From: Trueperaceae bacterium
Lineage (GTDB): Bacteria > Deinococcota > Deinococci > Deinococcales > Trueperaceae
DNA: 64,000 nt
Assembly (NCBI GenBank): GCA_965213925.1
Contig: OZ243927.1
Coordinates: 1,216,001 to 1,280,000 of the forward strand
Reading direction: 5' to 3'
Position 1 is the first letter of the stretch; the number at the start of each line of letters is the position of its first letter. A model generated the notes under the pieces. That model had not been told where the DNA came from. It saw only the letters and a program-made list of their open reading frames with translations, and did no database searches. This document shows, piece after piece, positions 1,174 to 62,690 of this stretch. Made by a program: the position numbers and the translations under genes.

Positions 1174-1418
1174 TAGCAGGCATCATCTGGTCAGCTACAC
1201 TCTCACTAAAAAGAACATCGCCTAGCACGCACTTTCAGGGATGACCTGTTCCCGGTTACACCGTTTTCGCGAATGCGAAAGGGAAACTTCGTAAGCGTCG
1301 CGTGGTTCACGAAGTACTTCCGAAGGAAACCGCTCCCGCTAGCTGCTTTAGCGGGTATATCTGCGGAGAAGTGTTGCTTCGCATGGCTTCGCCCAAGCAA
1401 CGATAAGTGAAACTGCTA
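1174..1418 (+). mobile_element. Family-B MITE-like element with nested inserts
   Basis: TA-GCAGGCATCATCTGG...GTGAAACTGC-TA; 1212-1373 is identical to 19154-19315. Confidence 0.75.
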
Positions 1419-6684: not shown

Positions 6685-7911
6685 ATGCTAGCCCTCGCTT
6701 GGCGCAACCTCTGGCGGCAGGGGCGGCGCAGCCTCATCTCGCTCGTCGCCGTCGCCATCGTCGTGCTCTTCGCCATCGTTATGTACAGCTTCGGCGGGGC
6801 GATGACGAACGGCATGTACGGAGATTTGACCCAAGAGGTGGGCAACGTGCAGATTCATACCCAGGGCTACCGGGACGCGAGGGGTTTTGGAGACGGGCTC
6901 TTGGAAAACGCGCAAGAGGTCAGAGAGACGGTCTTTCAAGTGTTGCCGGACACTGTTTCTGTCGGCTCCTTACAAGTTCCCGGACTGATTGCGGGGGAGG
7001 ACCGCTCGAGAGGCTTAGCGGTGCAAGGGCAGGACTGGCCCGAGGTTGTGCGTGAAGACTTCGTGGACTACCTAGCAGAAGGCACCTTTGTCGAGGGCGA
7101 TAACATCACCGGCATCATGTTGGGGCGTTCTTTGGCAACAGCGTTAGAGGTCAGCTTAGGCGATGACGTGTACGTCTACGCCCCCGGCACCGAGGGCTAC
7201 GGCGCAGCCGCGTATACCGTCGAAGGTCTGCTGGATTTCGACGACCCCAACCGCGAGATCAACGCGGCGTACCTCTCGCTCATAGCGGCGCAGGAGTTGG
7301 CTGCGCCGGACGCGCTCTCAAGGCTCGAGCTTCACTTCCCCGGCGTCAACACCTTAGCGCAAGACGCGCAGACGGCGGACGACCTAGCCGCGCTCAGAAA
7401 CGCGCTAGGGGACGGTGTGGTTGTAGAAGGTTGGCGAGACATCGACCCCAGCCTCGCCACGCTGGTTCAGTTCTTCGCACCTGTCATCGTGGTGATGTCG
7501 CTGATCTTCTTTGTGCTGGCAGGTCTGCTCGTTCTGAACACGGTTTACCTCAGCACCTTAGAGCGCATCCGCGAGTTTGGCGTCATCATCAGCTTAGGGG
7601 CGAGAGGTCGGCAGGTTATGGGCATGGTCACGTTAGAGAGCTTGCTCTTGTGCCTTTCGGGTGCGGCTGTCGGTCTCGCTATCGGCTTAGGCATTGTGGC
7701 GCTCGGTAGAAACGGTCTCGAACTACCCGGCTACAGCGAAGAGATATTGGCAGAATTTGGCTTGCCCAACGTCTTCTACCTCTCCATAGAGCCCTGGCAA
7801 GTGCTCATCGCCGTAGGTTTCGCCGTGCTCACCGCTATCCTCGCCGCGCTATGGCCCGCGCGCATCGCAGCGAATACTGAACCAGCCGAAGCGATGAGGT
7901 ACACCGCGTGA
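6685..7911 (+). CDS. ABC transporter permease (FtsX/MacB/LolE family)
   Basis: LAWRNLWRQGRRS, ERIREFG, PAEAMR C-terminus. Confidence 0.92.
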   Translation: MLALAWRNLWRQGRRSLISLVAVAIVVLFAIVMYSFGGAMTNGMYGDLTQEVGNVQIHTQGYRDARGFGDGLLENAQEVRETVFQVLPDTVSVGSLQVPGLIAGEDRSRGLAVQGQDWPEVVREDFVDYLAEGTFVEGDNITGIMLGRSLATALEVSLGDDVYVYAPGTEGYGAAAYTVEGLLDFDDPNREINAAYLSLIAAQELAAPDALSRLELHFPGVNTLAQDAQTADDLAALRNALGDGVVVEGWRDIDPSLATLVQFFAPVIVVMSLIFFVLAGLLVLNTVYLSTLERIREFGVIISLGARGRQVMGMVTLESLLLCLSGAAVGLAIGLGIVALGRNGLELPGYSEEILAEFGLPNVFYLSIEPWQVLIAVGFAVLTAILAALWPARIAANTEPAEAMRYTA

Positions 7912-8299
7912 ATCAGGAGCGAGGAGCGGGAAGCAAGGAGCAAGAAGATAGGGCAAAAACGTTTAGAGACCTCGTCGTGTGGCAGAAAGCTCACGCCTTT
8001 ATCCTAGACGTTTACCGCTACAGCGAAACGTTCCCGAAAACCGAGATGTACAGACTGACCTCCCAGTTACGCCGCGCGGCGGTGTCTGTCGCTGCCAACA
8101 TTGCAGAGGGATTCGCCAAAAGGGGTGTCGCTGATAAACTTCGCTTTTACGCTCAAGGTTCCCTCGAGGAGTGCAGCTACTACCTTATACTCGCTCGAGA
8201 TTTGGGATTCGGCGAAACAGCAAACTCAGCGAACAGCTTTTCGAAGTCGGACGGCTCCTCGGCGCATACATGAAAGCCATTCAAAAGCAGCGGACGTAG
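7908..8299 (+). pseudogene. Four-helix-bundle protein (23S rRNA IVS-protein/bAvd-like family), frameshifted, flanked by heptamer arrays (7915-7946 and 8316-8348)
   Basis: FRDLVVWQKAH...LTSQLRRAAVSVAANIAEG...QGSLEE; the canonical C-terminus LSEQLFEVGRLLGAYMKAI continues in another frame after about 8224 to TAG 8297-8299. Confidence 0.8.
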
Positions 8300-10003: not shown

Positions 10004-10235
10004 TACACCGTTAAGTAAAAAATGACTCATGTCATTCTGAACGGAGCCCTACGGCGAGCGTAGGATAGACTCCGCCCTACGGTAAACCATAGGATAGACT
10101 CCGTGAAAGAATCTCTGCCCTTGCTGACTCCTCTGATAGAGAAGGAAAGTTACGTAGTTTTGGCATAGCCAACCGAGACCCTCACGCCTTCGGCTCAGGG
10201 TGACAACAATGGCGCAGAATTTACTTAACGGTGTA
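10004..10235. mobile_element. Family-A MITE
   Basis: TIR TACACCGTTAAGTAAA / TTTACTTAACGGTGTA; CTGAT on both sides; internal GTCATTCTG...AGAATCTC and GAGACCCT...CAGGGTGAC hairpins. Confidence 0.85.
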
Positions 10236-10239
10236 CTGA

Positions 10240-10469
10240 TAGCGTTTCCACTTGAAGCTGCTACAGCAGCTTCAAATGTGAGCGGAAAAGAGCCTTTAGC
10301 TGGAGGTAGCGTTACGGGCAGCCGCCCTGCCGTTGCATCTTCAAATCAACGCACGTAGATAACGGCTCACTGTGCGTCGCGTGGTCCCGCTCCCGCTAGC
10401 TGCTAAAGGCTTCTCTGCGAATAGAAACAAACGCTGTCAGTGGTGTAGCAATGACTCGTGGAAATGCTA
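10240..10469. mobile_element. TA-flanked MITE (family-B-type ends) with a nested family-C element at about 10288-10414
   Basis: TAGCGTTTCCAC / GTGGAAATGCTA ends; internal AAGAGCCTTTAGC...GCTAAAGGCTTCT. Confidence 0.75.
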
Positions 10470-10485
10470 TGAAAGTAGACGACTA

Positions 10486-10596
10486 TAGCAGGTATCATCT
10501 GGTTTGAGCCAATCTCACAAGATAGAACATTGTGCAGCACACACCTTAGGGGATGATATCTGCGTGATTCAAGCTCAGTAGTTATGATAATTGCTT
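10486..10596 (+). mobile_element. Family-B element, minimal form
   Basis: TAGCAGGTATCATCTGG...GATGATATCTGC...TTGC. Confidence 0.7.
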
Positions 10597-12067: not shown

Positions 12068-12458
12068 TGCAAGTTTTGCAGTACTGTTGTCACCCTGTTC
12101 ACGCAGTACGACGAAGTCCGGCGAAGGCGTAAGGGTCTCGTTTGGCAATAGCCAAAACTCTGTAACTTTCAATCTCAGCAAGAGGAGTCAGCAAGGTCAG
12201 AGATTCTTCGACTCCGCTTCGCTCCGCTCAGAATGACATGATTCATTATTTGTCCAACGATGTACTAGTACAGCGTCAACTAAGTATTGATACTTCCTAC
12301 TGATGTCACCCTGAGCGAATGCGTAAGGGTCTCGTCCTCCAATCTCGGCTAGGCAAGAAGGCGAATGCAGAGATTCTTACACTCCGCTTCGCTCTTCTTC
12401 GAAGGTGCTAACGCGAACCGTTCAGAATGACATCACTCATCTTTTAATTTACAGAGTA
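12068..12458. mobile_element. Two tandem family-A MITEs (about 12068-12264, left end truncated; 12269-12458)
   Basis: CTAG at 12064, 12265 and 12459; GTCACCCTG/GGGTCTC and GAGATTCT/CAGAATGAC hairpins. Confidence 0.8.
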
Positions 12459-12554: not shown

Positions 12555-15500
12555 GTGTCAGAAGAAGCCGGGTTAGACAAAACCGAGGTAGATGAAACTG
12601 GGGTGGATCAAACCAAGCCAGATCAGCGTGAGTCGGAGGATGAAACGAGCGCGCAGCCGGGCGCATCCTCAGATTCATCGCTGAGCATCGTCGGGCTAGG
12701 CGCGTCGGCGGGTGGCTTGGGAGCGTTGCAGCGCTTCTTTAAGCACACGCCTGCGCAGAGCGGACTCGCCTTCGCCGTCGTGATGCACCTCTCACCCGAG
12801 CACGAGAGCCACCTAGCCTCCCTCTTGGAGGGACACACCGACATGACGGTGGTGCAGGTCAACGAGACGTTGCCGATGGAAGCCGAGCACGTCTACGTGA
12901 TTCCGCCGAACCGTAACCTCTCGGCTATCGACACGCACTTGCGCTTAGACCCCCTGGAGAACGAGCGGCGGCAGCGTGCGCCCATCGACCACTTTTTCAG
13001 AACCCTCGCCCGGATGCACGGCGAGCGGGCTGTGGCTGTCGTTCTGTCCGGCACGGGCTCGGACGGCGCGGTAGGGTTGGGGCGCATCAAAGAGGCCGGG
13101 GGGCTCGCCGTGGTGCAAGACCCCAAGGAAGCCGAGTACGATAATATGCCGCAGAGCGCCATCGCGACGGGGCAAGTCGATCTCGTTTTGAAGGTCGAGG
13201 CGATGCCGGAGCGGATCGTCCGCTACACCAGGGAGCGGCGCGAGTTGCGGCTTCCCGAGAGTGACGAGTCCTTAGAGCAAGATGAACTCGAGGTGTTGGG
13301 GCGCATCCTCGCGCAGCTTCGCGCCCAGACCTCTCACGACTTCTCTCAGTACAAGCGCTCCACGCTCTTGCGCCGCATCGCCCGCCGGATGCAGCTTCAC
13401 CACCTGGAACGGCTGCTGGACTACCTGGAACGGCTGCGCACCGACCCCGATGAGGTCGCGCTGCTCTACCGCGACCTGCTCATCACCGTCACCAACTTCT
13501 TCAGGGACGAAGAGGCGTTCGGAGCACTGGAGCAGCACGTCGCTACGCTCTTTGAGGGCAAGGGTCCCGGCGACAGCGTGCGGGTCTGGAGCGTCGGCTG
13601 CGCGACCGGAGAGGAGGCGTACAGCCTCGCCATTTTACTCCTCGAGCACGCGCACCGGCTTTCCGCTCCGCCCAGCGTGCAACTCTTCGCCACCGACGTT
13701 CACCCGGACGCGCTCACGCGGGCCCGCGAGGGGATGTTCCCCAAAGGGATCGCGAGCGACGTCGGCGAGGCGCGGTTGCGGGAATTTTTCGTGGAGGAGT
13801 CGGGCGGCTACCGCATCAGCCAAGCGGTGCGCGAAAGGGTGGTCTTCGCGCCGCACAACCTCCTTTCCGATCCGCCCTTCGCCCACCTCGACCTGGTGGT
13901 GTGCCGCAACGTGCTCATCTACCTTAAACGCGAGGTGCAGCGCAAGGTCTTCGAGCTGTTCCACTACGCACTCCGCGAAAACGGCACGCTCTTTTTAGGC
14001 ACGTCGGAGACCGCCGACGACGCGCTCTTTGACATGGTGAGCAAAAAGCACCACCTCTACCGGCGTAAGAACAAGCGTGTGGGGTTGCATCTGCCTCAGC
14101 TCCCCCTCTCGCCGCCCAGCGCGGCGAAACCGTCAGGGACGCGCAGAGACGAGGAGGGCACATCTCATATACCTTCTGGCGGTGCGTCCTCTGACGGTGC
14201 CTCCTACGGGGCGCAGCACGCCCGCGCCGCCGAGCGCTACGCCCCGCCCAGCGTGCTGATCGGCGAAGACCACGACATTCTGCACTTTTCTGAACACGTC
14301 GGGCGCTACCTCGAGCAGCCCGGCGGCGACCCCACCGACAACCTGTATCGGCGCATCCGCGCTGAGCTGCGCGACGGACTCCGCGCCGCGCTGCAAGCTG
14401 CCGAGGACCGGTCAGCTCGAGATAAAACGGGGCGGAGTCGTCCGGTAACGCTCCGCATCGAGGGCGAGAGGCGGCAGGTCGCCCTGCAAGCCTCACGTAC
14501 TCAAGACGACGACCTTCAAGGGGCCACCCTAATCCTGTTCTACGAGTGGGAGCCCGAGGGAGACGAAGCGGCGCGTGCGAAGGGTGACGCCGAGGGCCCT
14601 AGCGCCGCTGATCCGGTGGTCGAACGGCTCGAGGCGGACGTTGCCGGGCTCCGCGAGCGGCTCCGCGCCGCCACCAGCGAGTACGAGACCTCGCGCGAAG
14701 AGATGAAAGCGAGCAACGAAGAGTTGCAGTCGATGAACGAAGAGCTGCGCTCCACCGCCGAGGAGCTGGAGACCTCCAAGGAGGAGTTGCAGTCCATCAA
14801 CGAAGAACTCGCTACTCTAAACCAGGAGAACCGGCACAAGGTCGAGGAACTGTCACAGCTCACGGGCGATTTGCAAAACCTGCTCGCCGCCACGGATATC
14901 GCCACGCTCTTTTTAGACCGCAAGCTGCGCATCCGGCGCTTCACGCCCAAGGTGGACGAACTGTTCAGCATCCGCGCAGGCGACGTGGGCAGACCGCTCG
15001 CGGACCTCACCCACCGGCTCGGCGACCAGACGCTCATCGCCGACGCCGAGGCGGTGCTGCGCACGTTGCGCCCTCTGGAGCGTGAGGTTAGGGGGGGAGC
15101 GAACGCGGCGGAGGATACGCCCTGGTATCTCATGCGCATGTTGCCTTACCGCACGCCCGAGGACCGCATCGACGGGGTGGTCCTGACCTTCGTCGAGATC
15201 ACCCGCTTGAAGCGTGCGGAAGAGACGCTGCGCCGCTCCGAGGAGCGCTACCGGCTGCTCGTCGAGAGCGTCAGCGAATACGCCATTTTCACCACCGACG
15301 AGCGCGGCGAGGTCACCACCTGGAACACGGGTGCGGAAAGGCTCCTCGGCTACACCGAGGAGGAAGCGGTAGGCAGGAACGCTGACCTCATCTTCACCGA
15401 GGAGGACCGGGCGGCGGGCGTGCCCCGGCGAGAGTTGGAACGTGCGGCGGAAGAGGGCCAAGCGACGGACGAGCGCTGGCACCGCCGGGCGGACGGGTCA

Positions 15501-16825: not shown

Positions 16826-17217
16826 TACAGTGTTAGGTAAACAATGAAGCATGTCATTCTGAGCCCTACAGCGAGCTATAGGATAGACTCCACGCAGTGG
16901 AGCGTAAGAATCTCTGACCTTGCTGACTCCTCTGACAGAGAACGAAAGTTACGCAGTTTTGGCACAGCCAACCGAGACCCTCACGCCTTCGCCGGACTTC
17001 GTCTGACTGCGTGAACAGGGTGACATACCATCCCTGATGTCACTCTGAACGAAGCAACGCGAAGTGAAGAGTCTCTGCATTCGCCTTCTCCTTAGTGAGA
17101 GAGCACAGGGCGAGACCCTTACGCCCCTATCGTTCTCACTCCGTTCGGACCCGCCGGACTTCGTCGTACTGCGTGAACAGGGTGACAACAGTTTCGCGTT
17201 CTTTGCTTAACAGAGTA
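16826..17217. mobile_element. Family-A MITE with two internal hairpin pairs
   Basis: TACAGTGTTAGG...CTTAACAGAGTA flanked by CTGAG on both sides. Confidence 0.82.
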
Positions 17218-19050: not shown

Positions 19051-19339
19051 TAGCAGGTTCCTTCGCTTACGAAGTTTCCCTCCGGGAAGGCTGCGCGCAA
19101 TCAAAATCTGTCTCACTAACGTTCGGAGCTGGTTTGAGCCAATCTCACAGGGTAGAACATCGCCTAGCACGCACTTTCAGGGATGACCTGTTCCCGGTTA
19201 CACCGTTTTCGCGAATGCGAAAGGGAAACTTCGTAAGCGTCGCGTGGTTCACGAAGTACTTCCGAAGGAAACCGCTCCCGCTAGCTGCTTTAGCGGGTAT
19301 ATCTGCGGAGAAGTGGTGCAATGTCAAGTGGAAATGCTA
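19051..19339 (+). mobile_element. Family-B element with multiple nested inserts
   Basis: TA-GCAGGT...GTGGAAATGC-TA; shares 162 identical bp with the copy at 1174. Confidence 0.78.
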
Positions 19340-25124: not shown

Positions 25125-26740
25125 TGGCATTGGTCCATCGCCTTGGACAAAGTTAGTAGGAATAGACTTTGCTAAGGAGGAAGACAATGGCAGAAGGTAA
25201 AAGGGTTGTTCGGCAATATCCAGTCGAGTTCATACCCGCTGAAGCAGGGCACAGGAATTGGCGCGGTGGAACTGGTAGAAAAAAAGGGCTATCCAGTCAA
25301 GCTGGCGGCTTTAGCTTCCGCAGGAACGAACGGTGGCATCACTGAGGCAGCGAGAAGTCTGGGTATTTCCGAGTCGAACATCCACAAGTGGCGTAAGCAG
25401 TACCGGGAAGGGCGCTTAGTGATGGGGCATAAACGGGCACAGCCCACGGCTGATGAAGCTGAGTTACGGCGCTTGCAGGCGGAGGTGAAGCGGCTCGAGA
25501 CGGAGATTGGCGATTGTAAAAAAGGCCGCGAAGAGCCCTCAGCGAGAGGTTCCTTCGGAAGCTTCGCGCAATCATCTTTCAATCTAAGCGCGTAGATAAC
25601 GGCATGCTACGCAGTCGCGTGGACCGCTCCCGCTAGCAGCTGAGGCTCCTTTTTACTTTGCGAAACAGACGACCTAAAATGCACCTTCATCGAGGGGCAT
25701 CAAGGCGAGTTTTCCTGCTGTGTGAGGTGCTGGGCGTGGCTAGGAGCAGCTATTACCACTGGCGGGCGCGTCGGCAACGAGAGCCAAGCGAACGCGAGCG
25801 CAAGAACACCGAGCTACTGGAGAAGATCAAAGCGGTATTCGAGAAAAACAGGGGCAGGTATGGTAGCCCTCGGGTCCACCTAGAACGGGCAAAGCCCGCC
25901 CCTTCGGGGCTAGTTCGCTGAGCTGAAAAAGCAACAGGTCGCCTGCTCTTTGGGACGGGTCAAGCGGTTGATGCGTAAAGAAGGGCTCTTTGCTGTGAGC
26001 AGCAAGAAGGTCCACTTCAAACGGGAGCGGTGCGACCTCGAGACCCAGAACTTGTTGCTAGAGCAGCCACGCCCGACGGCGATCAATCAGGTGTGGCACG
26101 TCGATATCACGTACATTCCTACTGCCGAGGGCTGGCTCTACCTGGCGGGCGTCATGGACGCGAAGAGTCTTTAACAGCAGGTAGCATCTGGTCATGAACG
26201 CAGCAGGTTGGAAACGGCATGGTACGCCCTGTTAAAGACTTCTCTCCAAGCGCATTGTCGGCTACGCCATCCAGTCAAGCTGGACGAACGGTGAGCGACA
26301 ACATGAAGACCGACCTGGTGCTGCAAGCTCTACGCTCAGCCACGACCCGGCGCAAGCCCCCACCCGGCTTGATCCATCATAGCGACAGGGGGAGCCAATA
26401 TACTTCCTACGCCTATGGGCGTGAACTCGCCGCTTGTAAGATGTTGCCGAGTTTCATAGGTAAGGGCGCGTGCTTCGATAATGCGGTGATTGAAAGCTTC
26501 TGGTCAACGCTGAAAAGAGAACTCGTCTACCCAATAGGGCGCTTCGACACCCGCGATGACGCCCGAGTTGCAGTGTTTGAGTACATCGAGGTCTATTACA
26601 ACCGCGAGCGGCTGCACAGCTCGCTCAACTACGAGACGCCTGACACCTTCGAACTATCCCAACAGCAAAGAGAGAATCAGGAGGTGAGCCTAGCCGCTTA
26701 GCTGTATACTTTGGCTGTCCAAGGTTTTAAGCCAAGCCTA
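25125..26740 (+). mobile_element. Decayed IS3-family element interrupted by several micro-insertions
   Basis: orfA from ATG 25187 (YPVEF...AARSLGI); A6G slippery site at 25518-25524; orfB YGSPRVH, WHVDITYI, HHSDRGSQY, DNAVIESFW, YYNRERLHSSL; imperfect IRs sharing CCTTGGACA. Confidence 0.92.
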
Positions 26741-28437: not shown

Positions 28438-28720
28438 ACCAACTGTTCCATCGTTGTCTCTATCTTTGACATATAAAGGGGTTCTACCTGCGAGCTATAG
28501 GATAGACTCCGCCCTACGGCGAGCGTAGGATAGACTCCTCTGAGAGAAAGAATCTCGTCTTCCACTCTCAACTAGTTGAGAGTGCGAGTTACGAAGTTTT
28601 GGCAGTAGCCAATTGCAGAGTTTTAGCGTAACTAAACAAGACCTTTACGCCTTCGCCGGACTTCGTCGTACTGTGTAGACAGGGTAACATTCCATATTGT
28701 AGAACTTAATTGACAGTGCG
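28438..28720. mobile_element. Degenerate family-A MITE with tandem 28-nt modules
   Basis: AGAATCTC and ACGCCTTCGCCGGACTTCGTC...CAGGGTAAC; right end TTAATTGACAGTG; CTAAG/CTTAG flanks. Confidence 0.65.
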
Positions 28721-39465: not shown

Positions 39466-39687
39466 TCACCCCGCCACCGCCGCCTCCACAATCCCTACCT
39501 CTTCCTCCGTCAGCCCATAAAGCTCATACACCAAGCTATCTATCTGCTCGTCCAACGCCGCAATCTCTCCCGTTAGCCGCTCCAACTCCGCGCCCGCCGC
39601 GCCCGCCTTCTGTTCATGCAGCCCCAACATCTCGTCCACCAGCCGCGTCATACGCTCATGCTGCTCTTTTTCGGTTGGGTTGGAGAG
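39466..39687 (-). repeat. Direct repeat 1 (222 bp), encoding the C-terminal tail of a type IIG R-M enzyme
   Basis: LSNPTEKEQHERMTRLVDEML...IDSLVYELYGLTEEEVGIVE; one mismatch to 40323-40544. Confidence 0.9.
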
Positions 39688-39725: not shown

Positions 39726-39941
39726 ATGCGCACTGTAAAAGCTCTCATCAACGAGCACGGCAAAGTAGAACTTTTAGAGCCCGTCACGCTGAGTGAAGAG
39801 CGCCAAGCTCTCGTCACCATCCTCGACGCGCCCACCCGAGAGCCGCGTCCCTTCGGGCTCTGCAAGGGCGAATTCAGCGTGCCGGATGACTTTGACGACC
39901 CTCTACCCGACGACATTCTGGACGATTTCGAGCGTGCATGA
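39726..39941 (+). CDS. Antitoxin (VapB-like)
   Basis: RPFGLCKGEFSVPDDFDDPLP; TAAACT just upstream of ATG 39726. Confidence 0.82.
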   Translation: MRTVKALINEHGKVELLEPVTLSEERQALVTILDAPTREPRPFGLCKGEFSVPDDFDDPLPDDILDDFERA

Positions 39942-40321
39942 AGCTCCTCTTGGACACGCACGTGTTCTTGTGGTACATCAGCGGAGATAGCCGCCTACCC
40001 ACCGCTATGCTGAACGCTATACGCGACCCCAATAACGAGGTCTACTTGAGCGTCGTTTCGGTGTGGGAGTCCATCATCAAGTACCAACTCGGCAAGCTGC
40101 CCCTGCCATCTTCCCCTGAAGTCTACTTGCCCTTACAGCGCAGGCGACACCTCATCTACAGCCTGGATGTTGACGAAGCGAGCGTCACCGAGCTTATCAA
40201 GCTGCCGCCGCACCACCGCGACCCCTTTGACCGCTTGCTTATCTGCCAAGCCACTGCGAACAAGATGGTCTTAGCCACCGTAGATAGTGTCATGAAACGT
40301 TACAACGTCAGTACGCTCTGA
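39938..40321 (+). CDS. vapC: VapC/PIN-domain toxin
   Basis: MKLLLDTH, SVWE, HRDPFDRLL, TVD. Confidence 0.92.
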   Translation: MKLLLDTHVFLWYISGDSRLPTAMLNAIRDPNNEVYLSVVSVWESIIKYQLGKLPLPSSPEVYLPLQRRRHLIYSLDVDEASVTELIKLPPHHRDPFDRLLICQATANKMVLATVDSVMKRYNVSTL

Positions 40322-40322
40322 T

Positions 40323-40544
40323 TCACCCCGCCACCGCCGCCTCCACAATCCCTACCTCTTCCTCCGTCAGCCCATAAAGCTCATACACCAAGCTATCTAT
40401 CTGCTCGTCCAACGCCGCAATCTCTCCCGTTAGCCGCTCCAACTCCGCGCCCGCCGCGCCCGCCTTCTGTTCATGCAGCCCCAACATCTCGTCCACCAGC
40501 CGCGTCATACGCTCATGCTGCTCTTTTTAGGTTGGGTTGGAGAG
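40323..40544 (-). repeat. Direct repeat 2 (222 bp), type IIG R-M C-terminal tail
   Basis: Near-identical to 39466-39687. Confidence 0.9.
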
Positions 40545-60812: not shown

Positions 60813-62690
60813 TTGAAACACGCGAAACGCTTTTTAGCCCTACCGTTCCTGATCATTTTCTTAGCAGCGTGCGGAACGTACAGCGAACTTCCCGAGCAGG
60901 TCGCCGAGGCGGATGTAGAAGAGATTGTTGCGGTTGCTGAGTTAGCACCGGACGCCGAAATCGGATCGCAGGGATATAAGAGAGATAATCTCGTGCTCCG
61001 CGTCGAGAAGCAGGTTCTTCCCGATGACCACGCAGACCCACACCCCGCCAAGTACGACATTGATCTCATCTGTAAGAAAAAGGGTGGCGGCAAACTTGTA
61101 ATCGACTTACCTACGTTCACTAAGTCTGGCGCGAAGACCTACAACGTGAGCAAGAGCAAGATCAACTACTATCTCGGCAACACCAAGCACTGCTTTGTCC
61201 GTGAAAGGGGCACGGTAGGCACCAAGCTCGTCCGGTTCAACGTCACAAAAGACGCGAAGACCGTGTCGGGTTTCCCCCAGACGGTTCTCCCCAAAGACTA
61301 CGCTAACAAGAGAACGGTCAAGTCGAAGAAGTTCGACCTCGAGCACGTAAACAAGAAGATCGTCATCAAGGTCGTCAACAAGTTCGAGGAAGAGAAGAAG
61401 GAAGAGAAGGACTTTGAGCTTGTCGTCGAGAAGAAGTTCGTTGACGCGCACGGCAACGAAGTCAAGCCCGAGCACTACTACCTCAGCGTGGACCTCGAGT
61501 GTAAAGAGGGTAAAAAAGATGTGATCGATGAGACCCTCCTCACTGCAGGTAAGCTCCACTTCTCGGATCACGATTTCAAAGACTTAGGCGGCTTAAAGTG
61601 CGAGATCGAGGAGAAGTTCGCCTCGGACGATCTCAAGCTGCATGAGGTCATCGTCAAGTTCGAAGCTTCCGAACACGGCAGGCACATCGCCAGCGGCGAG
61701 AAGAAAGACAAGCACATCGAGGACAAGCACTACAAGGGCAAAGAGGTCCAGTGGGCTAACTCCGGCTACTTCCACGTCCCCGAGAAGGCTGACAAGCTCG
61801 TCATCATCATTATCGACGTCGTCAAAGAGGTCGAGGACGACTTCGAGCTTGTCGTCGAGAAGAAGTTCGTTGACGCGCACGGCAACCCGGTTGACGTCAA
61901 AGACTACTACTTAGAGGTGGACCTCGAGTGTAAAGAGGGTAAAAAAGACGTGGTCGATGAGACCCTCCTCACTGCAGGTAAGCTCCACTTCTCGGATCAC
62001 GATTTCAAAGACTTAGGCGGCTTAAAGTGCGAGATCGAGGAGAAGTTCGCCTCGGACGATCTCAAGCTGCATGAGGTCATCGTCAAGTTCGAAGCTTCCG
62101 AACACGGCAGGCACATCGCCAGCGGCGAGAAGAAAGACAAGCACATCGAGGACAAGCACTACAAGGGCAAAGAGGTCCAGTGGGCTAACTCCGGCTACTT
62201 CCACGTCCCCGAGAAGGCTGACAAGCTCGTCATCATCATTATCGACGTCGTCAAAGAGGTCGAGGACGACTTCAAAATCATCGTCAACAAGGAGTTCAAA
62301 GAAGGAAATTACAACGGTCACGTCCTCCATCTCGACCCTCACGCCTACGACCTCAGAGTGGCTATCGTTTGTGAAGACGGTACAAGGGTCCACGTCAATC
62401 TCGGCAACGATCTCCACTTCTCGGACCACGACGCCGAGGACCTGAGAGGCAAGAAGTGCTACGTCGAAGAGTACTTCAAGTCCGACTATTACGATCTCCT
62501 CAGATTCAGAACCACGTATAGCACTGACAATCACGACGATTACAGAGTCTCCGCCGGTGTCTGGAAGAGCGAGAAAAACGGCTATCAGTACGTGAACAAT
62601 GATGATAAGCCGTTCCACATCTCTAAAGACGCGGATGAACTCGTGATTGACCTCGTCAACGCTGTTGAAGAAAGCAAGTACTACCACTAA
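60813..62690 (+). CDS. Surface lipoprotein with four tandem beta-sandwich (CnaB-like) domains
   Basis: Lipobox LAAC; SD GAGGAG; 429-bp internal tandem repeat. Confidence 0.85.
   Translation: MKHAKRFLALPFLIIFLAACGTYSELPEQVAEADVEEIVAVAELAPDAEIGSQGYKRDNLVLRVEKQVLPDDHADPHPAKYDIDLICKKKGGGKLVIDLPTFTKSGAKTYNVSKSKINYYLGNTKHCFVRERGTVGTKLVRFNVTKDAKTVSGFPQTVLPKDYANKRTVKSKKFDLEHVNKKIVIKVVNKFEEEKKEEKDFELVVEKKFVDAHGNEVKPEHYYLSVDLECKEGKKDVIDETLLTAGKLHFSDHDFKDLGGLKCEIEEKFASDDLKLHEVIVKFEASEHGRHIASGEKKDKHIEDKHYKGKEVQWANSGYFHVPEKADKLVIIIIDVVKEVEDDFELVVEKKFVDAHGNPVDVKDYYLEVDLECKEGKKDVVDETLLTAGKLHFSDHDFKDLGGLKCEIEEKFASDDLKLHEVIVKFEASEHGRHIASGEKKDKHIEDKHYKGKEVQWANSGYFHVPEKADKLVIIIIDVVKEVEDDFKIIVNKEFKEGNYNGHVLHLDPHAYDLRVAIVCEDGTRVHVNLGNDLHFSDHDAEDLRGKKCYVEEYFKSDYYDLLRFRTTYSTDNHDDYRVSAGVWKSEKNGYQYVNNDDKPFHISKDADELVIDLVNAVEESKYYH
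61410..62267 (+). repeat. Intragenic tandem duplication, 2 x 429 bp
   Basis: 61410-61838 vs 61839-62267; differences are confined to about the first 120 nt. Confidence 0.95.

Follow-up and report, generated by a model that had tools for sequence, protein, structure and literature searches.

A dead IS3 element in a Trueperaceae genome is riddled with discrete small inserts, including a 22-nucleotide repeat found mainly in Chloroflexota

We analyzed a stretch of 64,000 nucleotides (nt) from a Trueperaceae bacterium of the Deinococcota (assembly GCA_965213925.1, contig OZ243927.1, positions 1,216,001 to 1,280,000), hereafter the window, in which a pseudogene copy of an IS3-family insertion sequence (IS) occupies positions 25144-26721 of the plus strand. 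The copy ends in TGGACA...TGTCCA. Its fragments match the Pfam families HTH_Tnp_1 in OrfA and HTH_21, rve, rve_2, and rve_3 in OrfB, and its relatives carry PF01527 and PF00665/PF13333/PF13683/PF13276. The C-terminal fragment of OrfB (135 aa) aligns with full-length relatives of 275-282 aa at 87-94% identity (P0001-P0007), and the OrfA fragment (65 aa) with relatives mostly of 101-103 aa at 81-91% identity (P0122-P0133). An A AAA AAG motif at 25518-25524 of the plus strand, which we take to be the usual programmed -1 frameshift motif of IS3 elements, lies between OrfA and OrfB. Such a slippery site and TG..CA ends are general features of the family, and the copy shows both, together with HTH_Tnp_1 in OrfA and the rve (DDE) domain in OrfB. 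A search of plasmid DNA with the IS3 copy returned just short, distant IS3 matches, none usable as a DNA-level relative, and no IS3 relative was present among the loci fetched for the 22-nt repeat described below. The breakpoints in the copy were placed by tblastn of two protein relatives, P0004 for OrfB and P0123 for OrfA, against the window.

The copy is 1578 nt long as found and 1255 nt after removal of six blocks, (a) to (f), that sum to 322 nt, and of one additional nucleotide. It aligns with its relatives in collinear pieces, none of which contains a stop codon, and the frame switches at sharply defined points. OrfA is found in four frame-shifted pieces (25187-25680, plus strand; tblastn of P0123 and three-frame translation). 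In its first part, the match MAEGKRVVRQYPVEF stops at 25231, after VEF, and is followed by block (a), a 22-nt (possibly 23-nt) insert at 25233-25254 with a bulged hairpin and the tail CACAG(G), after which the alignment resumes with the relatives' ..IDAVELVEKKGY, where the window reads RIGAVEL. Block (b), at 25292-25333, is a 42-nt composite inserted in frame (KKGY^GITEAARS): a 22-mer split into 14 and 8 nt by a nested 20-mer (25306-25325), which on the minus strand reads as T, a TCC/GGA mini-stem, and a tail. A 1-nt insertion at about 25506 (ETE^LAIVKKAA), seen as a change of frame, lies just upstream of the slippery site, and block (e), 120 nt with imperfect terminal inverted repeats, occupies 25531-25650 (+/-2 nt; KKAA^(I)YFAK). 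OrfB is interrupted by the 37-nt block (d) at 25880-25916 (PRVH^AELKK), by block (f), a hairpin element of about 79 nt at 26163-26241 (+/-3 nt; VMDA^xSKRIVGYA), and by block (c) at 26270-26291 (GYA^MSDNM), which is the uninterrupted form of the 22-mer of block (b). All these inserts are given in plus-strand coordinates.

Removing each of the six blocks restores the reading of the intact relatives, and the relatives themselves are empty at these positions. Among those listed, all eight OrfB proteins lack inserts at the three OrfB sites, all nine OrfA proteins lack blocks (b) and (e), and the eight OrfA proteins that cover the site of block (a) lack it too. An initial annotation of the window, made from the letters alone, had delimited the same six blocks and proposed the restored peptides; the tblastn alignments agree with it throughout, and its own worry, that intact homologs might already contain the blocks, is answered by every relative listed. 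Its list of lesions was right for the six blocks and incomplete in overlooking the 1-nt insertion near 25506. We also considered the blocks as spliced mini-introns and rejected this, because the 1-nt frameshift and the inserts that resemble miniature inverted-repeat transposable elements (MITEs) mark the copy as a pseudogene; we know of no bacterial mechanism for splicing such introns. The IS3 copy is therefore a pseudogene bearing secondary insertions. Since its visible lesions are six insertions against one point frameshift, with no nonsense substitution, the data suggest that such insertions can be a leading route of decay of neutral DNA in these genomes.

The window has two copies of the 22-mer, one of them divided 14+8 by the 20-mer (0 copies expected from 100 shuffles), and no further copy with up to 3 mismatches is present in the 64 kb. 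To follow it elsewhere, species-representative genomes were scanned for exact matches to the 14-nt head and the 8-nt tail separated by 0 to 30 nt, and the matches were fetched with 10-kb flanks. This gave 64 loci (labeled L0nn) with 69 sites on 45 contigs of 25 assemblies, in 698,727 nt of non-redundant DNA (699 kb below). The two sites of the window were not returned, so its source genome lies outside the scanned collection, and the counts are without it. The other blocks were counted within the window and the 699 kb. By simple arithmetic, chance alone would give about 2 sites with the gapped pattern and 0.07 with the ungapped; 49 of the 69 sites, in 20 assemblies, are uninterrupted. The repeat is thus present far beyond this one element, a point on which the initial annotation had made its reading depend. 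A search of plasmids and phages with the 42-mer gave chance-level partial matches only.

The 22-mer is mainly an element of Chloroflexota (Anaerolineae), with few copies in Deinococcota. By record title, 21 of the 25 assemblies are Chloroflexota (15 Anaerolineae-type, 4 “Chloroflexia,” and 2 “Chloroflexota”). A Trueperaceae metagenome-assembled genome (MAG; CBDBZX01) has five pattern sites in all and shares repeat families with the window at 85-96% identity, and one “Alphaproteobacteria” MAG carries an exact copy in a typical context. The sites with gaps of 3 and 5 nt, in an Albidovulum MAG and an Aminicenantes MAG, are probably chance matches. The four sites on the Trueperaceae contig CBDBZX010000008.1 (783 kb; L013, L018, L034, and L035) all lie on the same strand, too few for a test, and GC skew as a guide to the replication strand was near zero and uninformative.

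Insertion of the 22-mer is precise. Both copies in the IS3 element sit at A^TG (GGGCTA^TGGC and ACGCCA^TGAG), as the initial annotation had stated, and only the T is ambiguous, so that no target duplication beyond this one nucleotide is seen. The 40 non-tandem sites represent 21 flank contexts, with A at position -1 in 18, T at +1 in 19, and G at +2 in 14, and a left flank that tends to GSGA; in Deinococcota six of the seven sites are A^TG and one is T^TG. Six of the 40 filled sites have an empty paralog or ortholog in the fetched DNA. Most clearly, CACAGAACGCAGGA^TCTTCGAGAGGCGA, a module repeated in one Chloroflexia MAG, is empty nine times and filled three times, exactly at GGA^TCT. The target preference and the empty counterparts, together with the 20-mer lying within the 22-mer, bear out the proposal that the elements insert precisely and inside one another. 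Tandem 22-mers occur head to tail, in runs of two and three in L031 and a run of two in L014. In the interrupted copies (20 of the 69 sites), the extra 3-26 nt lie at CTGG^ACGA, the sole position that the gapped pattern permits. Removing the 22-mer in silico leaves a frame open on both sides at 11 of 71 sites, a weak test in GC-rich DNA that gives no count of genes hit.

Two further transposase genes carry the repeat. In the Trueperaceae MAG (L013), a 22-mer antisense to the gene splits an IS630-like transposase (HTH_32 and DDE_3) at SWLN^MVEIEF. In a Chloroflexota MAG (L010, 1-1283), another splits an IS1182/IS5-like transposase (DUF772 and DDE_Tnp_1_6) at YGYLNRI^RSSR; this insertion may be recent, because 426 open codons follow it. 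Altogether, the 22-mer lies in three unrelated transposase genes, each in a different genome, in flanks that share 2-3 nt only, and those of the IS3 sites have just A^TG in common with the other sites. With so few shared nucleotides, homology-driven conversion is an unlikely source of the inserts. As a separate observation, one contig of a Chloroflexia MAG (L025/L044) carries an array that repeats every 1.1 kb or so, with eight copies of the 22-mer in about 9 kb, whose intergenic modules start with GCCTAAC and contain chains of short CC..GGA hairpins; we take these modules to resemble integron attC sites.

Two other small units recur in unrelated places. Block (a) has a copy with one mismatch in L034 (17261-17282, minus strand), within a MITE of the D1 family. 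Window paralogs of this MITE at 10552 and 38502 show its empty state, GATGA^TATCTGCG, and the filled copies are those of L034 and of window positions 1245-1357 and 19187-19299. At 1245-1357 (minus strand; second copy at 19187-19299), the block (a)-type element is in turn split by an (e)-like element of about 90 nt, which carries a 23-nt unit of the 20-mer type at 1306-1328. The 20-mer family has the core AGCTTCCGMAGGA followed by AC. No solo copy of the exact nested 20-mer was found in the 64 kb and the 699 kb; units of its type lie inside the 22-mers of IS3, L056, L034, and L035, at GTGG^ACCG as 23-mers of the (e)-like elements (1306-1328 and 19248-19270), and on the minus strand of block (e) (25533-25551). 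The type is thus found in at least five contexts, with a target preference for TGG^AC, and on the opposite strand its units also follow the order T, hairpin, tail; the loop of several is C(TTCG)G. The whole 42-nt composite recurs with one mismatch and in a different context in the Trueperaceae MAG (L056, 6298-6339, minus strand), so that either all 42 nt move together or TGG^AC is a strongly preferred target of the 20-mer type.

The remaining blocks are of other kinds. Block (d) is an insertion of two adjacent GC mini-hairpins between CTAG..CTAG; it may be mobile, and no second copy of this 37-mer with up to 5 mismatches is present in the 64 kb and the 699 kb. Blocks (e) and (f), of 120 and about 79 nt, have the size of ordinary MITEs. 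The former matches window elements at 1250-1343, 19192-19285, and 10354-10400; the latter contains a 12-nt perfect inverted repeat, AGTCTTTAACAG, and shares its first 28 nt or so with the D1/D17 MITE family (1172, 10484, 19114, 37304, and 38434). They belong to two different window repeat families, and the single “family C” to which the initial annotation had assigned them has to be given up. Its description of the inserts as ultra-small (20-37 nt) holds for (a), the parts of (b), (c), and (d), and fails for (e) and (f); similarly, recurrence at unrelated sites holds for the 22-mer, block (a), and the 20-mer type, the 37-mer being single. A search for paired high-scoring segments between the window and the Trueperaceae loci found only four insert/empty events.

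The small units have a common build: a T, a GC hairpin of 3-5 bp, and a tail of 6-12 nt, in 20-23 nt overall (42 nt for the composite). Many sister units in the 22-mer loci consist of T, a CC..GG hairpin, and ACGAACGG, with hairpins that are quite different from one another, or have the variant tails ATGAACGA, GCGAACGG, and ACGATCGG. Units with other hairpins and the same tail (ACGAACGG or ATGAACGA) are found in both phyla, and in one Chloroflexia MAG such hairpins follow one another across entire intergenic stretches. At 17192-17237 of L034, a D1-family MITE has a 44-nt insert relative to its window copies, in which a CCCCTTGCGGGG hairpin with a ATGAACGA tail is contained, and L018 of the Trueperaceae MAG contains the unit CCCCTTTCGGGG with GCGAACGG. 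The fold is clearest for the 22-mer, which as DNA forms a 5-bp stem with a 7-nt tail at -3.5 kcal/mol (8 of 200 shuffles are as good). Block (d) forms two mini-hairpins (10/200) and block (a) a bulged stem (38/200). The claim that every block contains a hairpin thus stands for the 22-mer and falls for the 20-mer, which as written reaches -0.6 kcal/mol, with 150 of 200 shuffles folding as well.

The window holds further repeats. A micro-repeat family of 28-29 nt, with a CCCTACGG..CGTAGG hairpin and the tail ATAGACTCCR, is found at 10047-10103 (in tandem), 16865-16892, and 28483-28511; the copy at 16865-16892 is an insert relative to the paralog at 12221-12226, and the tail also occurs in L018 near 17510. 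Direct repeats of 222 nt, 100% identical, at 39466-39687 and 40323-40544 flank an open reading frame (ORF) with a PIN domain (39938-40321). Others of 300 nt, 80% identical, lie at 61316-61615 and 61745-62044 in a 625-aa ORF that has no Pfam match, and a 21-nt periodic repeat rich in GAAGAG lies at 14696-14809 in a 1319-aa CheB/CheR-PAS-histidine kinase ORF.

What could have produced this accumulation? That a dead IS3 element is riddled with discrete, recurring small inserts is real, and we find it reasonably probable that it gathered non-autonomous micro-repeats and two MITEs, the micro-repeats being inserted in trans as a single strand. The IS3 copy would have lost its function and then collected several families of very small non-autonomous repeats, while two ordinary MITE-sized elements also entered it. 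An enzyme whose gene lies elsewhere would copy the units in trans to new sites, with a single strand as the moving form. Probably the ends required in cis are the 14-nt head and the 8-nt tail, because every internal segment lies exactly at their junction and the 42-nt composite recurs whole. We suggest only tentatively that a “hairpin plus tail” class of 20-30 nt is common to Chloroflexota and Deinococcota and is inserted in trans at targets of 2-3 nt without duplication, by means of the 14-nt head and 8-nt tail only. Our leading guess is that a HUH/Y1-type or similar nuclease cleaves and rejoins the hairpin-bearing single-stranded DNA (ssDNA), working much as with repetitive extragenic palindromes (REPs): in vitro, REP hairpin DNA is cleaved and recombined by TnpA-REP, a Y1 transposase (PMC3333891). 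The phenomenon would be the same as that of the small dispersed repeats (SDRs) of cyanobacteria. That the enzymology is of this HUH/Y1 type remains doubtful, even as our first choice.

Several observations weigh against this reading. Pfam domains of reverse transcriptases, HUH enzymes, and IS110 transposases are absent from the 46 ORFs of the window, all ordinary chromosomal genes, and from 85 ORFs in 89.5 kb of the Trueperaceae MAG, which show IS fragments only; these regions hence offer no candidate for the mobilizer that the initial annotation had proposed to look for. A search with motif expressions and phmmer for HUH enzymes and REP-associated tyrosine transposases (RAYTs) in the 699 kb and the window gave one clear RAYT-like ORF, in L055, and two marginal fragments (E 0.003-0.006). 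The L055 ORF (907-1698, minus strand; region 868-1555) is flanked by its own palindromes of about 33 nt, with one more inside it at about 1277-1307, and we rejected it as the mobilizer since these REPs are unrelated to the 22-mer. Copy numbers are low (5 sites in the Trueperaceae MAG, at most 15 pattern sites in any assembly), the 37-mer stands alone, and a hairpin ends at the target in only 6 of 21 contexts, a weak enrichment over the 11-12% of control A^T sites. The scan required exact matches, so the identity of the 22-mer across phyla is partly a matter of ascertainment; the 699 kb contain 22 further heads with variant tails or with one mismatch in the head. The comparison data come nearly all from MAGs, and the repeats may or may not be moving at present. 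The initial annotation, which saw tiny, precise, nesting, trans-dependent repeats exposed by a dead IS, was right in kind and is partly supported; it overreached in calling the system active and in its mechanism, a transposase-less mode, perhaps with an RNA or ssDNA template.

Two ORFs noted beside this search encode members of PF05635 (“23S rRNA-intervening sequence protein”), the family to which Avd proteins of diversity-generating retroelements belong. One, at 7908-8270 of the window (plus strand), is wedged between ABC-transporter genes. The other, at 10055-10480 of L018 (minus strand), has its end some 30 nt away from a 22-mer; its neighbor is an EAL-domain gene that is broken into two ORFs.

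Other processes could also be considered. The units could spread through RNA, if small structured RNAs or parts of transcripts were reverse-transcribed into nicks or replication forks. They are strictly polar, head to tail, and a C(TTCG)G loop is found in four of the eight distinct hairpin types of the window and the Trueperaceae loci (block (d), the nested units of L034 and L035, and the 23-mer at 1306 together with block (e)); UUCG tetraloops are very stable as RNA. However, none of the 46 and 85 scanned ORFs has a reverse transcriptase domain, there are no poly-A or priming signatures, and the units have no Rfam match in the window and seven unit-rich loci, where the only match was one fluoride riboswitch. 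Furthermore, the 20-mer type in IS3 is antisense to the 22-mer, as is the 22-mer of L013 to the gene that it interrupts, so the units do not stem from transcription of the host. We regard a route through RNA as unlikely. It is slightly more unlikely still that the 22-mer is a nano-MITE, i.e., a minimal internal deletion (14 nt of the left end and 8 nt of the right) of an autonomous element whose transposase moves it. The extra 3-26 nt lie at CTGG^ACGA in 20 of 20 interrupted sites, as such a junction would have it, but the gapped pattern allows no other position, and the sites with 3 and 5 nt probably arose by chance. The composite of 42 nt does recur as a unit in L056. Yet no long element bounded by these ends was found, the 22 other heads in the 699 kb having variant tails, and the 22-mer lacks terminal inverted repeats and target duplication. 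Many of the internal segments are units of the same hairpin-plus-tail superfamily, and for that reason they fit nesting.

The inserts could instead be by-products of repair or replication, patches copied by template switching from repeats rich in hairpins, either at stalled forks or in the course of double-strand-break repair, with no dedicated enzyme. Deinococcota repair broken DNA by extensive synthesis, the units pile up beside other hairpins, as in the CC..GGA chains of L025, and GGA, which forms the foot of the units, also ends many targets. Such patches would hardly have identical 22-nt boundaries in contexts that share 2-3 nt (IS3 twice, IS630, IS1182, and the attC-like repeat), exact phase even in coding DNA, and the same unit in two phyla, and we consider this origin improbable. 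As for the blocks being assembly errors or original parts of the IS3 lineage, the same units appear in independent assemblies and all listed relatives lack the blocks, which makes either origin exceedingly improbable. Insertion in trans of non-autonomous micro-repeats thus remains the explanation that we favor.

Few reports exist of mobile DNA shorter than about 50 nt. To our knowledge, SDRs are the one bacterial precedent, reported in Nostocaceae only, and we know of no mechanism for them since 2008. The present data put SDR-like behavior in two more phyla, with a defined unit, target, and ends, and the units seem to rank among the smallest pieces of mobile DNA observed in bacteria. If they do form a shared class with trans-acting machinery, they would be the smallest such units, and the SDR phenomenon would be widespread and directly testable with dead transposase genes as natural traps. 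Since a dead IS and its near-identical intact relatives give breakpoints exact to the nucleotide, searches for the enzyme and trap assays are feasible. There is also a warning for annotation: inserts of 22 nt make genes look like frameshift pseudogenes.

These elements resemble several known systems in part. Blocks (e) and (f) are MITE-like in their size of 79-120 nt, their inverted ends, and their membership of window repeat families, whereas the 20-23-nt units have neither terminal inverted repeats nor target duplication. With REPs and REPINs the units share a short hairpin flanked on one side by a conserved unpaired tag and mosaic clusters of hairpin units, and for REPs a HUH enzyme is known that cuts and rejoins such ssDNA (PMC3333891; PMC3733652). 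But here the stems are of 3-5 bp, the copies are few (at most 15 pattern sites per assembly) and stand head to tail rather than in inverted pairs, and no link to a RAYT is seen in the 699 kb and 64 kb. The tags of REPs are GTAG or CGTC, with stems of 8-9 bp in the CGTC family, and Di Nocera et al. give CGTC repeats for 5 phyla, with neither Chloroflexi nor Deinococcus-Thermus among them, and list no REPs of any kind for Deinococcus-Thermus (PMC3733652). We tried the 22-mer as a member of this family on account of the CGTC at its junction of tail and stem (minus strand, CCGTTCGT and CCAG..CTGG) and rejected it, as its stem is only 4-5 bp long. IS200/IS605 elements likewise leave their target unduplicated; they enter 3' of a short specific sequence, through hairpin recognition and a single-stranded intermediate (see PMC3333891). 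They differ in needing two distinct hairpin ends and more than 100 nt, against one hairpin and a 22-nt unit here, and in their fixed tetra- or pentanucleotide target, the left flank GSGA^ being degenerate. The GC clusters of yeast mitochondria are also very small GC-rich hairpin elements that behave as mobile DNA (PMC4478555), by a mechanism not known to have been settled, in a eukaryotic organelle and with other sequences and target rules.

Our full-text search, which leaves subscription journals largely outside, found no description of such elements for Deinococcota or Chloroflexota, and the initial annotation likewise knew of none in Deinococcota. The SDRs of Nostocaceae cyanobacteria, which Elhai et al. 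are said to have described in 2008 (Genome Res 18:1484), are reportedly of about 21-27 nt, dispersed, in tandem, nested, and precisely inserted, with no known mobilizer. Second-hand accounts are found in PMC2884548 and PMC5861425; the latter gives no SDRs for HIP1-enriched cyanobacterial genomes outside the Nostocaceae and leaves other phyla unmentioned. The parallel drawn in the initial annotation is apt: the units described here are of 20-23 nt and dispersed (69 pattern sites for the 22-mer), they are nested and arranged in tandem arrays, and filled and empty sites show them to be precisely inserted. They differ in their host phyla, Deinococcota and Chloroflexota, in the hairpin with a shared tail of 7-8 nt, in the presence of the same 22-mer in two phyla at low copy number, and in having been detected inside three dead transposase genes. 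By their description, rather than by the sequences of SDR1-8, the SDRs appear to be the closest known analog of these elements.

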